The notes under the pieces were generated by a model that saw only the letters and a list, made by a program, of their open reading frames with translations, did no database searches and had not been told where the DNA came from. A DNA stretch of 64,000 bases from an uncultured Clostridia bacterium (GTDB lineage Bacteria; Bacillota; Clostridia; Oscillospirales; JAAYOS01). The position numbers were made by a program, and so were the translations under genes. Every line of letters begins with the position of its first letter. Positions within the stretch are counted from its first letter, which is position 1. The stretch is from positions 141,188 to 205,187 of the forward strand of contig CANQDU010000001.1 in the NCBI GenBank assembly GCA_947593925.1, written 5' to 3'. Shown piece by piece: positions 1,157 to 58,302 of the stretch.

Positions 1157-1417
1157 TCGCTGCAAATCGCGGGCGCGGATTTCATCCGCGCCCTTACCAA
1201 TTTGCAGCGAGAGTTCACTTGGAATTGCACAGGTGCAATTCCAAGTGAAGCTGTCGGATAGGGCGAAGCCCTACCGACAGCGGACGCCGTTCTTCGTTCC
1301 TCGCGGGCTCTGCCCGCTCGAAACGCGAACGGCGATAGGAGTTTTTTCCGACGTACACGCCGTCGGAAAAAACATTCAACTCATTTCGCCGCTAAAGCGG
1401 CGAAACTCTGCGAGGCT
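1157..1417 (+). repeat. Mosaic hairpin composite R1 (modules A-B-C-D-Eshort), starting 4 nt after the fhs stop codon
   Basis: It contains module A 1157-1210, B 1214-1249, C 1251-1280, D 1285-1334, a hairpin at 1342-1372, and the E tail hairpin plus AAACTCTGCGAGGCT at 1383-1417. Each module recurs elsewhere in the window. Confidence 0.8.
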
Positions 1418-6375: not shown

Positions 6376-7293
6376 TCAGGCGCGGACGTGCCGCCCTCTC
6401 CGGCAGGCCAGTCCCCACACGAGCAGCGCCGCTATCGCGGCAAACACCGCCGTCATCGGTACCAGCGCCAGACGCTCGAGCGACGTGAGCTCCGCCGCTT
6501 CGGTCTCCGCGCCCGCAGAAAGCAGGAGCGCGAGCGCCGAGAGGCCGTTGTAGCCTATGTGCATCGCTATCGACGCACCCGCGCCGCACCACACGAAAAC
6601 GAGGCCGAGCAGCAGTCCCGTAGGCAGGACGTAGAGCATCTGCAGCGGCTCCATGTGTACGAGCGCGAACACCGCTCCGGTGATGAGCACCGCCGCCCAC
6701 GCGGGGTACGCTCTGCGGAGCGAGCGCATCGGCATACAGCGGAAGGCTATCTCCTCCGTCACCGGCACGAGCAGCGCGACACAGAATATCATCAGCGGCG
6801 ACGTGTCGGAAAGCGCTTCCCCTACCCCCTCGTTGTAGCTGTCAAGCATCTCCTGCGGTATCGGCAGAAGCTCCATAAGGAAGCTCGTCACGAGGTTCAT
6901 CGCGACGCCGAGGAACAGCGCCATTATGATTGCGAGTATGTCCGGCCGGCCAAACCCCATGTCGCGGAATATTTTTCCGTGGCAGAGCTTCACCACGACG
7001 AGAGCGCTCACTATGGTGAGCGCGCAGTACACCGTCATGATGACCGGCAACATCTCGCTCATGCTCTCCGCCGCCTGCTCCTGCACGGCGCCCACGTCCC
7101 CGCCGTTTACAAGCGCGAGCGAGAACGTCTGCGCAAACATCACGACAAACGTTACCGCTACCTCCGCGACAAGGTACACCGCCGGGAATATCAGCGCGAG
7201 CAGCAGTGCGATCATCTTGCTCGGACGCTTCGGCGCGGGCGGCTCCATGCCGCCGTAATACCGAATGTTTTCGCCGTAACCACGTCCATCCAT
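6376..7293 (-). CDS. CPBP family intramembrane glutamic endopeptidase (CAAX protease/Abi)
   Basis: The EEIAFR and FALVH motifs sit in a polytopic membrane protein. The start codon is uncertain. Confidence 0.75.
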   Translation of the reverse strand: MDGRGYGENIRYYGGMEPPAPKRPSKMIALLLALIFPAVYLVAEVAVTFVVMFAQTFSLALVNGGDVGAVQEQAAESMSEMLPVIMTVYCALTIVSALVVVKLCHGKIFRDMGFGRPDILAIIMALFLGVAMNLVTSFLMELLPIPQEMLDSYNEGVGEALSDTSPLMIFCVALLVPVTEEIAFRCMPMRSLRRAYPAWAAVLITGAVFALVHMEPLQMLYVLPTGLLLGLVFVWCGAGASIAMHIGYNGLSALALLLSAGAETEAAELTSLERLALVPMTAVFAAIAALLVWGLACRRGRHVRA

Positions 7294-14462: not shown

Positions 14463-14469
14463 TCGCGTT

Positions 14470-14514
14470 CGCGGGGAATAAGGAGCGGGCAAAGCCCGCT
14501 CCTTATTCCCCGCG
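14470..14514 (+). repeat. Stop-proximal long hairpin (first module of composite R3), 8 nt after the dacB-like stop
   Basis: The sequence is cgcggggaataaggagcgggc-aaa-gcccgctccttattccccgcg. It is homologous to 38739..38787, with a compensatory mid-stem. Confidence 0.75.
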
Positions 14515-14517
14515 AGA

Positions 14518-14600
14518 CCGTCGGACAGGGCGAAGCCCTGCCGACGGCCAGCGCCGTTCTTCGCTCCTCGCGGCTTTGCCGCTTCGAAGCGCGAACGGCG
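14518..14600 (+). repeat. Modules C and D of composite R3
   Basis: C (14518-14547, ccgtcggacagggcgaagccctgccgacgg) and D (14552-14600) parallel 1251-1280 and 1285-1334. Confidence 0.75.
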
Positions 14601-14778
14601 AGAGGTGTAAATTTCGCCGTTCGGTTCGTACAATGTTGGGACGTCGGCGCGAAGCGCCGAGGTCAGATGCGCCCGGTAGAAAGTTCCGGTGCGTAGCAAG
14701 TCGAAGGGCGCATTCACGCCGCCGCCGAAAATAATTTGAACTTATTTCGCCGCTAACGCGGCGAAACTCTGCGAGGCT
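14601..14778 (+). repeat. Module E, long form, copy 2
   Basis: It runs from gagaggtgtaaatttcgcc to atttcgccgctaacgcggcgaaactctgcgaggct and is homologous to the reverse complement of 25677..25853. Confidence 0.8.
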
Positions 14779-14843
14779 TTTGAAAAGCCCGAGGGAGCCG
14801 CTAAACGCGGCTCCCTCGGGTTTGCTTTATTTTGTGCGAATGT

Positions 14844-15603: not shown

Positions 15604-15695
15604 GTTTGGGAATTGCGCCTGCGCAGTTCCAAGTGAACTTTTCGCTGCAAATTGGTAAGGGCGCGGATAAAATCCGCGCCCGCGATTTGCAGCGA
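15604..15695 (-). repeat. Composite R4: modules A (15642-15695) and B (15604-15637), inverted, starting 6 nt after the stop of the minus-strand gene 15702..16112
   Basis: The reverse complement of 15642-15695 equals 1157-1210 except for one loop base. Confidence 0.85.
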
Positions 15696-15701
15696 AATTA
15701 T

Positions 15702-25676: not shown

Positions 25677-25853
25677 AGCCTCGCAGAGTTTCGCTGCTTC
25701 AGCGGCAAAATAAAGTTCGATCTGTTTTTTTCCGACGACAATGCGCCCGCCAACATATACCGTGCTTAACATTCTACCGGGCGCATCAGACCTCGGCGCT
25801 TCGCGCCGAGGTCCCAACATTGTACGAACCATAGGGCGAAATTTACACCTCTC
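25677..25853 (-). repeat. Module E, long form, copy 3 (inverted)
   Basis: Its reverse complement aligns with 14601..14778, including gagaggtgtaaat, gggacCtcggcgcgaagcgccgaggtc, gatgcgccc...gggcgcatt and the tail aaactctgcgaggct. Confidence 0.8.
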
Positions 25854-25886
25854 GCGTAGCGCGCGTCGAAGGCGGCGAAGCCGTTT

Positions 25887-26025
25887 CCGCGCCGGTTCGC
25901 GCGGTTAAAGTTGCTTGCCTATGGCAAGCAACTTTGCGCAGGCGGAATTCACTTCCGCCGAGCATTTCAATCAAAAGGGCTCCCACGCGGTCACTGACCG
26001 CGTGGGAATTGCGAAGCGGAGCGCC
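25887..26025 (-). repeat. Four-hairpin module F, copy 2
   Basis: It is homologous to 10943..11080 and 57975..58112. Stems are at 25887-25904, 25908-25934, ~25941-25959 and 25981-26007. Confidence 0.8.
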
Positions 26026-26026
26026 C

Positions 26027-26110
26027 GCCGCCGGCAGGACTTTGTCCTGTCCGGCGGCTTCGCGGAAAATTGAAGGGGGCAGACAAAGTCTGCCCCCTCG
26101 ATTTTCCGCG
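26027..26110 (-). repeat. Module C copy (26027-26058) plus stop-proximal nested hairpin (26061-26110), starting 6 nt after the oadB stop
   Basis: The nested hairpin is cgcggaaaat..agggggcagac-aaa-gtctgccccct..attttccgcg. The inner stem recurs at 58322-58349. Confidence 0.75.
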
Positions 26111-38738: not shown

Positions 38739-38787
38739 CTCACGGGGAACAGTTCGCGGGTAAAGCCCGCGAACTGTTCCCCGTGAG
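38739..38787 (+). repeat. Stop-proximal long hairpin (first module of composite R6), 3 nt after the jag stop
   Basis: The sequence is ctcacggggaacagttcgcggg-taaa-gcccgcgaactgttccccgtgag. Confidence 0.75.
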
Positions 38788-39105
38788 GCCGCCGGACAGA
38801 GCGGAGCTCTGCCGGCGGCAACGCTACGCTACGCGCCGAGTTTTCCGCCTTCGGCGGAAAATCGACGCACGCTCCGCGAGAGGTGTAAATTTCGCCGTAC
38901 ACGCCGCCGAAATTTACGGATTTGAATTTATTTCGCGCCAAAGGTGCGAAACTCTGCGAGGCTTGATTGCACTGTCCGCGCCGGTTCGCGCGGTGCGGCT
39001 TTGCCACTCGAAGCGCACTGCATACTGCACTATGTCGGGGAGTTGGCGCGCAGTTCACGGGCTTATCGAACAGCCGAAGCGGAGCCCCGTGCGGGCTTCG
39101 CTTTT
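38788..39105 (+). repeat. Remainder of composite R6 (module C 38788-38819, D-like, E short 38878-38963, partial F-type hairpin, terminal hairpin)
   Basis: The shared strings gccgccggacag..ctgccggcggc, gagaggtgtaaatttcgcc, atttcgcgccaaaggtgcgaaactctgcgaggct and ccgcgccggttcgcgcgg are all present. Confidence 0.7.
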
Positions 39106-47338: not shown

Positions 47339-47414
47339 GCTGGTATAGCTCAGCCGGTAGAGCAGCTGATTCGTAATCAGCAGGTCGTGTGTTCGAGTCA
47401 CATTACCAGCTCCA
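47339..47414 (+). tRNA. tRNA-Thr (anticodon CGU), CCA encoded
   Basis: It was folded by hand. The elements are acceptor GCTGGTA/TACCAGC, D arm GCTC/GAGC, anticodon arm GCTGA-TTCGTAA-TCAGC, T arm GTGTG-TTCGAGT-CACAT, discriminator T and CCA. Confidence 0.9.
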
Positions 47415-57883: not shown

Positions 57884-57887
57884 AACT

Positions 57888-57941
57888 TCGCTGCAAATCG
57901 CGGGCGCGGATTTCATCCGCGCCCTTACCAATTTGCAGCGA
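57888..57941 (+). repeat. Module A, copy 3, starting 4 nt after the carD-like stop
   Basis: It is identical to 1157-1210 over 54 nt. Confidence 0.9.
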
Positions 57942-57942
57942 A

Positions 57943-57974
57943 GCCGCCGGACAAGGCGTAGCCTTGCCGGCGGC
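57943..57974 (+). repeat. Module C copy
   Basis: The sequence is gccgccggacaaggcgtagccttgccggcggc. Confidence 0.7.
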
Positions 57975-58112
57975 AGCGCTCCGCTACGCATTCCCACGCG
58001 GTCGGCGACCGCGTGGGAGCCCTTCCGATTAAAATGCTCGCCCCGAATGAATCGGGGCTCCGCGAAGTTGCTTGCCTGTGGCAAGCAACTTCAACCGCGC
58101 GAACCGGCGCGG
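57975..58112 (+). repeat. Four-hairpin module F, copy 3
   Basis: It is colinear with the reverse complements of 10943..11080 and 25887..26025. Confidence 0.8.
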
Positions 58113-58149
58113 AGTGCGGCTCCGCCGTCTTCGACGCACGCTCCGCACA

Positions 58150-58302
58150 GTACACAGTCGGGACGTCGGCGCGAAGCGCCGACGTCTGATGCGCCCGGAA
58201 GAAGGTCGGATGAGGTATTGGTTCGAGGGCGCATTGTACACGCCGTCGGAAAAAATGAATTTAACTCTATTTCGCGCCCTTGGCGCGAAACTCTGCGAGG
58301 CT
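58150..58302 (+). repeat. Module E, copy 5
   Basis: gggacgtcggcgcgaagcgccgacgtc, gatgcgccc..gggcgcatt and atttcgcgcccttggcgcgaaactctgcgaggct are present. Confidence 0.8.

Follow-up and report, generated by a model that had tools for sequence, protein, structure and literature searches.

A hairpin-and-tail module as the probable right end of a terminator-targeting, hairpin-duplicating MITE-like element in Oscillospiraceae gene-end spacers

The question raised by this locus is why the same hairpin, followed by the same short tail, stands at five gene ends within the window (the whole 64-kb stretch of DNA that was analysed). In a preliminary description, this unit was named module E and was credited with five copies, a stem varying in a compensatory way and an invariant tail resembling a recognition site next to a final terminator. 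Here we conclude that module E is likely the conserved right end of a MITE-like, terminator-targeting and hairpin-duplicating element of Oscillospiraceae gene-end spacers.

Module E and its five copies in the window

The 15-mer AAACTCTGCGAGGCT has five exact matches in the window (plus-strand positions 1403, 14764, 38949 and 58288, and minus-strand position 25677) against 0.11 expected by shuffles, with 0 of 100 shuffles reaching five; a search of both strands of the window with up to two mismatches returned no match beyond these. The module is therefore real and non-random, and its description as a five-copy unit was borne out. A hairpin of the form TTTCGC-stem-loop-stem-GCGAAA precedes the tail in all five copies (in c3 the 5' arm reads TTTTGC), and its inner stem differs among them in a compensatory manner, as had been proposed. 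All five lie in spacers, 3' of a same-strand gene, with formate-tetrahydrofolate ligase, PBP5-type carboxypeptidase, oxaloacetate decarboxylase beta subunit, Jag/KhpB and CarD as the upstream genes; the flanking genes are housekeeping genes functionally unrelated to each other. Alignment of the five spacers revealed a common chain of palindromes, P1, P2 and P3, upstream of module E, with other repeated modules interspersed among P1-P4. We use module E for the P4 hairpin plus the tail and P1-P3 for the palindromes 5' of it; the full unit of ~200 nt comprises the four palindromes and the tail, and module E is its 3' end. The features are as follows.

1250..1417, plus strand: copy c1 (P1 1250-1281, P2 1285-1334, P3 1342-1372, P4 and tail 1384-1417)
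~1419-1458: terminator hairpin directly after c1
14468..14516, plus strand: module A, a long hairpin 3' of the stop codon (14462) and 5' of P1 of c2
14518..14778, plus strand: copy c2, whole (the copy from which the question arose)
14518-14547, plus strand: P1 of c2
14552-14600, plus strand: P2 of c2
14608-14620, plus strand: 5' arm of P3 of c2
14621-14714, plus strand: nested element N of c2
14715-14733, plus strand: 3' arm of P3 of c2
14745-14766, plus strand: P4 of c2 (module E hairpin)
14767-14778, plus strand: invariant tail of c2
14783..14833, plus strand: bidirectional intrinsic-terminator-like hairpin with T-run, common to the convergent genes, 3' of c2
25677..26057, minus strand: copy c3 (P1 26028-26057, extra module, P2, P3, P4 and tail 25677-25710)
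25740-25815, minus strand: element N nested in P3 of c3
38789..38963, plus strand: copy c4, short form (P1 38789-38818, P2, P3 38885-38917, P4 and tail 38931-38963)
57944..58302, plus strand: copy c5 (P1 57944-57973, extra module, P2, N, P4 and tail 58270-58302)
58160-58235, plus strand: nested element N of c5, with GTACA on both flanks
1156-1210, 57887-57941 and 15609-15698 (minus strand): module A copies, with variants at 14468-14516 and 38739-38787
15609..15698, minus strand: module A hairpin pair standing alone, 93-98% identical to the pair upstream of c1 and c5
25886-26007 (minus strand, in c3) and 57992-58113 (in c5): extra ~120-nt multi-hairpin module between P1 and P2
10943..11063, minus strand: solo copy of the extra module, 84-85% identical to the c3 and c5 copies

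The short form was read in the preliminary description as one hairpin, and P3 of c4 is indeed intact as the hairpin gtaaatttcgccgtacacgccgccgaaatttac at 38885-38917. The long forms were described as having further hairpins inside that loop. A two-hairpin segment of 76-94 nt (element N, with hairpins gggacNtcggcgcgaagcgccgaNgtc and gatgcgccc...gggcgcat) does sit in the GTACAC loop of P3 in c2, c3 and c5, but the P3 stem that encloses it is degenerate in c2 and c3 and lacks its 5' arm in c5. N is a further small element, lodged within the P3 loop of these three copies, and its GTACA flanks in c5 look like a short target duplication. N was also seen in three loci of other genomes (L021, L087 and L108), in L087 also directly after the tail.

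Module A at 14468..14516 belongs to a separate repeated hairpin family, and its solo pair (15609..15698) lies downstream of a minus-strand gene. The outer arms of module A (TTTCGCnG...CnGCGAA) resemble those of P4, with a terminator-like hairpin inside. Two of its copies are 100% identical across 55 nt and one stands solo downstream of another gene; module A looks like a mobile or duplicated module in its own right.

The placement of the tail beside a final terminator holds for c1, c2 and c5, where a terminator-like hairpin lies directly 3' of it, but not for c3 and c4, where none is present. P4 itself fails the layout of an intrinsic terminator in that the 12-nt tail separates the stem from the T-run, and the terminator scan at c2 calls only the downstream hairpin (14785-14823). 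Folded as ssDNA, the c2 spacer reaches -131.5 kcal/mol as compared to -83.2 kcal/mol for shuffles (z = -11.3). Rfam at gathering score gave no family match to the module E unit in the whole window, and with Rfam 15 searched by E-value all matches to c2 and one canonical copy fell far below gathering. The sole Rfam match in the window is a single tRNA gene (47339-47411, 69.5 bits).

At the c2 locus, the spacer measures 381 nt in the window versus 46-60 nt in the two nearest relatives (PBP5 78% and 75% identical), which have the same convergent gene pair. Since the short spacer of the relatives holds one bidirectional terminator, matching the window hairpin at 14783..14833, the whole c2 mosaic has been inserted 3' of the stop codon and ahead of the terminator. 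Logan contigs with the window PBP5 gene (L236-L238) break off within the repeat, ~117 nt past the stop codon.

The family, its intact ends and the duplicated hairpin

An exact scan for the 18-mer GCGAAACTCTGCGAGGCT across one genome per species returned at least 113 loci, almost all from Oscillospiraceae MAGs or isolates. Among the matches listed, the genera include Oscillibacter, Dysosmobacter, Scatomorpha, Avoscillospira and Papillibacter cinnamivorans, multiple loci often come from one genome, and three matches in unrelated phyla fall within coding sequence, a number that fits chance. A profile search with the unit identified 149 copies in the GCGAAACTCTGCGAGGCT loci listed, and homology spans ~200 nt across genera. 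By BLAST with the whole element, and so not by motif, we found Vescimonas fastidiosa MM35, where 7 copies fall within 50 kb of housekeeping sequence, some of them inside the rimP-nusA-ylxR-infB operon; its second replicon has 2 copies in the first 50 kb and none in the 92-kb conjugative part. In many Oscillospiraceae genomes the density is ~30-140 copies per Mb. As a separate observation on this replicon, pMM35_02, its conjugative or integrative part at 50-142 kb (L248-L249; VirD4, PrgI, integrases and an AcrIIA9-like gene) holds no copy and the housekeeping parts are copy-rich.

Around the copies, gene configurations were convergent in 34, tandem and co-oriented in 29, tandem and anti-oriented in 17 and divergent in 3 cases, as counted from rough gene calls; in annotated Vescimonas, one copy lies antisense between nusA and ylxR. 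As to the orientation check attached to the preliminary description, the unit is found in both orientations relative to neighbouring genes across genomes (29 versus 17 in tandem pairs). This context fits terminator targeting and not a strand-specific RNA role.

The boundaries of the element are provided by intact copies. A canonical intact unit is 203-206 bp long and begins with a left inverted repeat, (G/C)AGNNTGTC(A/G)AAAAAG, which doubles as the 5' arm of P1; P2, P3, P4 (TTTCGCnnn-loop-nnnGCGAAA), CTCTGCGAGGCT, a T-run and the right inverted repeat TTTTTGACAnnCTG (TTTTTGACANNCTG) follow in this order. The inverted repeats, (G/C)AGNNTGTC(A/G)AAAAAG at the left and CTTTTTTGACANNCTG at the right, are ~16 nt long and imperfect, with ~12 of 16 nt matching, and their boundaries were set by an empty site. 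In 19 of 30 full-length copies with both repeats, the same locus-specific hairpin of 24-35 bp abuts both ends, and more such cases were seen in viral contigs. For 14 of 17 duplications, the repeated segment is a hairpin with no more than 0-3 nt beyond it on either side; stems measure 9-15 bp and loops 3-8 nt, and the length of the duplication thus tracks the size of the hairpin.

A filled and an empty version of one site lie 3' of pnp. In the filled locus (L069), the stop codon is followed by 23 nt, TGAAGACGGGAGGCAGATGCCTCCCGTCTTTT, the 204-bp element, an identical 32-mer and ctcttgctttcc; in the empty locus (L239; PNPase 98% identical), a single hairpin TAAGACGGGAGGCCGTGCGCCTCCCGTCTTTT runs directly into ctcttgctttcc, with the same antitoxin gene downstream. 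The inserted segment is exactly the left repeat through the right repeat, and the 32-bp terminator, T-run included, is present twice. This pair shows an insertion with a 32-bp terminator duplication.

In most duplicated hairpin pairs the two loops read in the same direction, an outcome expected of staggered cuts, and a right flank made as an inverted copy of the left by fold-back synthesis is ruled out by these direct loops. In a few pairs (L088 and L044), one loop is the reverse complement of its partner, and the stems of L088 also have compensated differences; later flipping of the loop, by a template switch inside the palindrome, could account for this, as could hairpin-capped intermediates. 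Two further loci (L028 and L067) possibly also have an inverted loop in one hairpin copy.

Deletion derivatives and solo P1 hairpins beside terminators occur in other genomes. Minimal derivatives of ~75 nt consist of P1, P4, the tail and the right repeat; we considered these as evidence that the tail suffices for movement and rejected the idea, as a clean duplication on the two flanks was seen in none. Directly beside terminators, P1-type hairpins (CTGTCGAAAAAnnn-loop-nnnTTTTTCGACA) also stand without the rest of the element at 12769-12880 of L243 and 4990-5045 of L244, and may reflect deletion between the 3' arm of P1 and the right repeat, or mini-elements. A promoter directed outward or across the junction from the TTGACA of the right repeat was likewise rejected, as no -10 element is suitably spaced from it and the promoter scan was empty.

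The majority of copies, those of the window included, are without the right repeat and the duplication. All five window copies end at GAGGCT, and neither a right inverted repeat nor a duplicated hairpin was found in any of them. Mobility is shown for the family and not for these five copies, which we infer to be immobilised derivatives without right repeat and duplication, built up by other palindromic modules; addition of module A, the extra module and nested N would yield the mosaic visible in the window.

Other repeats occur in some of these loci. The recO-mutS2 spacer of Vescimonas fastidiosa (L114, 25060-26170) contains 1.1 kb of tandem and dispersed hairpin repeats that end in CCCCTACGG, e.g. 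gggcgaccgcaagggtcgcccctacgg, with more copies near 21.3-21.7 kb; these are a different repeat family. Another repeat conserved across genera, cattgcgaaaCCAGTGACCGATGTCACTGGttgtggcaatccgt, is present in L002, in L079 (3620-3730) and in L114 (~6830-6920), and is often preceded by a CTGTCAAAAAAG motif resembling the left inverted repeat; in L002, it is the hairpin of this repeat that lies duplicated on either side of the element.

DNA palindromes, the tail and how the element may move

Whether the palindromes are kept as DNA or as RNA was assessed by covariation in 45 diverse copies from other genomes, in which the compensatory variation of the stem again holds. Cells forming a standard pair amounted to 96.3%, compared with 80.7% in shuffles and 31-56% with partners slid, and cells changed on both sides numbered 205 versus 64 in shuffles; 0 of 500 shuffles reached the observed pairing and double-change values. 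One-sided changes of the G-U type were only ~6. Pair 175/184 is GC in 15, UA in 14 and CG in 12 copies, and pair 174/185 is GC in 33 and CG in 11. As these 45 sequences are copies of a mobile element, kinship inflates the covariation counts; despite this, several pair types recur at single positions. Counted from the pair types of the alignment, A-C mismatches are at least as frequent as G-U pairs, and in RNA folding it is the reverse complement that comes out as the more stable strand for 38 of 45 copies, with an equal G-U share on both strands. Double compensatory changes with almost no G-U and no strand bias favour DNA palindromes over an RNA fold.

These data bear on the reading of the unit as a structured RNA, i.e. 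a 3'-UTR element or sRNA whose hairpins and tail form a platform for protein or RNA binding in the control of stability, processing or termination, with spread by transposition being secondary. Such a role would account for the strong helix covariation, for the co-orientation of 5 of 5 window copies with the upstream gene and their position beside terminators, and for a tail that is invariant even where the right inverted repeat is gone; copies inside operons such as rimP-nusA-ylxR are moreover transcribed. It is at odds with the anti-oriented and antisense copies, the near absence of G-U or one-sided changes, a forward strand without folding advantage, the unrelated neighbour genes, the lack of an Rfam family match for the window, c2 and the canonical copy, and the lack of any sequence in the window complementary to the tail, a partner for which the preliminary description had suggested looking. 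We consider this reading unlikely.

As for the tail itself, CTCTGCGAGGCT is perfect in 13 of 14 copies of the window and Vescimonas sets, which are the two sets not chosen by motif, and single substitutions are seen in copies outside them. The right repeat is kept in only ~5 of the same 14 copies. In intact copies, the tail is an unpaired 12-mer located 5-7 nt inside the right repeat, and this position makes a subterminal end-recognition site the simplest reading of the sequence. By its conservation, the tail behaves like a constrained recognition sequence, and to that extent its proposed role stands. A reading of module E as a 3'-end or terminator-associated RNA signal standing on its own is not supported; the module closes, on the right, a mobile repeat of ~200 nt that has inverted repeats and a target duplication. 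That P4 and the tail form a subterminal right-end site needed in cis is put forward tentatively. A pure transposase-site model does not predict that the tail persists in copies that are no longer intact, and this persistence may leave room for a host-level or RNA-level role. A predicted 3-bp CTC/GAG mini-helix at the tail is uninformative since it never varies in the alignment. GCCTCGC in P2 was rejected as a long-range partner of the tail, as only one subfamily has it, and a literature search for the tail sequence returned unrelated primers only.

The flanking duplications and the filled and empty sites show that the element inserts at intrinsic-terminator hairpins and that the whole hairpin with 0-3 nt per side then lies on both flanks, so that each neighbouring gene keeps a terminator. 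We further propose that a transposase acting in trans would cut in a staggered manner at the foot of the hairpin, probably while this is extruded or single-stranded, and that gap repair would then duplicate the hairpin, reportedly as in the IS30-type elements IS1630 and ISMhom-1. The cutting rule can be read from natural insertions and empty sites, i.e. 0-3 nt outside the stem at any stem length. Insertion at a terminator with its duplication leaves both neighbours terminated, which may explain the ~30-140 copies per Mb in core housekeeping regions of this major family of gut bacteria.

Neither an autonomous parent nor its transposase was found in the sequence searched, which amounted to ~0.9 Mb from Oscillospiraceae loci, 192 kb from annotated Vescimonas and 17 viral contigs. 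ORFs ending beside the tail were all housekeeping genes; no parent IS emerged from proteins present in several copies across the loci, from hairpins duplicated at a spacing of 0.35-6 kb or from the 17 viral contigs with the tail. The whole 142-kb Vescimonas plasmid and 50 kb of chromid have no annotated transposase. Two records of a phage collection matching one element end were a solo P1 beside a terminator and an ordinary copy, and a scan of viral contigs with a 16-nt left-repeat pattern gave 120 random matches, 0 with an element. Using tblastn, E. coli IS30 InsI had no match in the local Oscillospiraceae DNA; against all plasmids it matched at least 5000 records and was non-discriminating.

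The inverted loops of L088 and L044 need an extra step beyond staggered cuts. It is conceivable, though improbable in our judgement, that the mover is a non-IS30 enzyme reading DNA shape, namely the base of the extruded or single-stranded terminator hairpin, with P4 plus CTCTGCGAGGCT as an ssDNA or RNA cofactor that would serve end recognition or targeting in cis. If true, this would add a new, structure-guided class to the known modes of integration, and would explain both the tail without right repeat and the flipped loops, the latter from hairpin-capped intermediates.

Less probable again is a REP/BIME-like origin, in which palindromes and unpaired motif are read as ssDNA by a domesticated HUH enzyme (RAYT or IS200-IS605 type) that both spreads and maintains them. 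The palindromes are DNA-level in look, with compensatory changes and without wobble pairs, the hairpin modules form mosaic clusters in gene-end spacers, copies are many with no IS in sight, and a conserved unpaired motif adjoins a hairpin, much as the tetranucleotide adjoins REP hairpins. Single-strand transposition by HUH enzymes yields neither terminal inverted repeats nor target duplication, whereas intact copies have both, with the empty site as proof; the unit is ~200 nt rather than 20-40 nt, and no RAYT-like gene was seen in the sequences searched, which are partial genomes. Ordinary locus-specific terminators or chance hairpins sharing a short motif, as GC-rich hairpins at gene ends could be, are refuted by the motif count, the profile copies with ~200-nt homology across genera and the insertion polymorphism of the filled/empty pair, and we give this next to no weight.

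For the favoured terminator-targeting element, several practical consequences follow. The repeat breaks short-read assemblies of genomes that carry it and could pass for riboswitches, sRNAs or terminators in annotation; terminator-seeking integration would be a useful genetic tool, if the enzyme is found.

Comparison with known systems

Literature searches on MITEs and terminators returned no description of this Oscillospiraceae family. Like bacterial MITEs (Correia/NEMIS, RUP and ERIC), the element is small (203-206 bp), non-coding, multi-copy and intergenic, with terminal inverted repeats, target duplication (19 of 30) and presence/absence polymorphism (the filled and empty site). The duplications of known MITEs are short and constant in length (2-9 bp), whereas here a whole terminator hairpin is duplicated and the interior consists of four co-varying palindromes kept across genera. 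With REP/BIME, the element shares mosaic palindromic modules in gene-end spacers, high copy number and DNA-level hairpins; REPs are single palindromes of 20-40 nt without inverted repeats or duplication, while the element is ~200 nt long with both.

Unusually long target duplications are also made by the IS1202 family; in the IS1202 subgroup they have a constant length of 27-28 bp, for which no dependence on a hairpin is reported (bioRxiv 10.1101/2022.12.17.520857), unlike the 24-35 bp found here, which vary with the hairpin. Group IIC introns similarly insert next to intrinsic-terminator stem-loops (PMC1702495), but these ribozymes of 0.7-2 kb carry no terminal inverted repeats and leave the terminator in a single copy; an intron model gave no match to the element.

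The closest likeness in target behaviour is to two mycoplasma elements, of which IS1630 reportedly targets rho-independent terminators in most cases. As far as found, these are the only precedents among reported elements for duplication of a hairpin target of variable length. For IS1630 of Mycoplasma fermentans, inverted-repeat duplications of 19-26 bp are cited in a passage of PMC2853133, and the title of Calcutt et al. 1999 (reference 47 of PMC3317919) states that it duplicates an inverted repeat of variable length and sequence; for ISMhom-1 of M. hominis, an IS30-family element, target inverted-repeat duplication is described (PMC7648426). As in these two, the duplicated hairpin varies in length, here 24-35 bp and tracking hairpin size. 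They differ in being autonomous IS of 1.3-1.4 kb with 27-bp inverted repeats and a transposase gene, in Mollicutes, in contrast to a non-coding ~204-bp unit with ~16-nt repeats, four palindromes and a subterminal 12-mer, in Oscillospiraceae. The mechanism of hairpin duplication in the two IS30-type elements has not been worked out, and the present family supplies many natural insertions. By analogy of target behaviour, we would file it as a MITE-like element with IS1630-type target behaviour.
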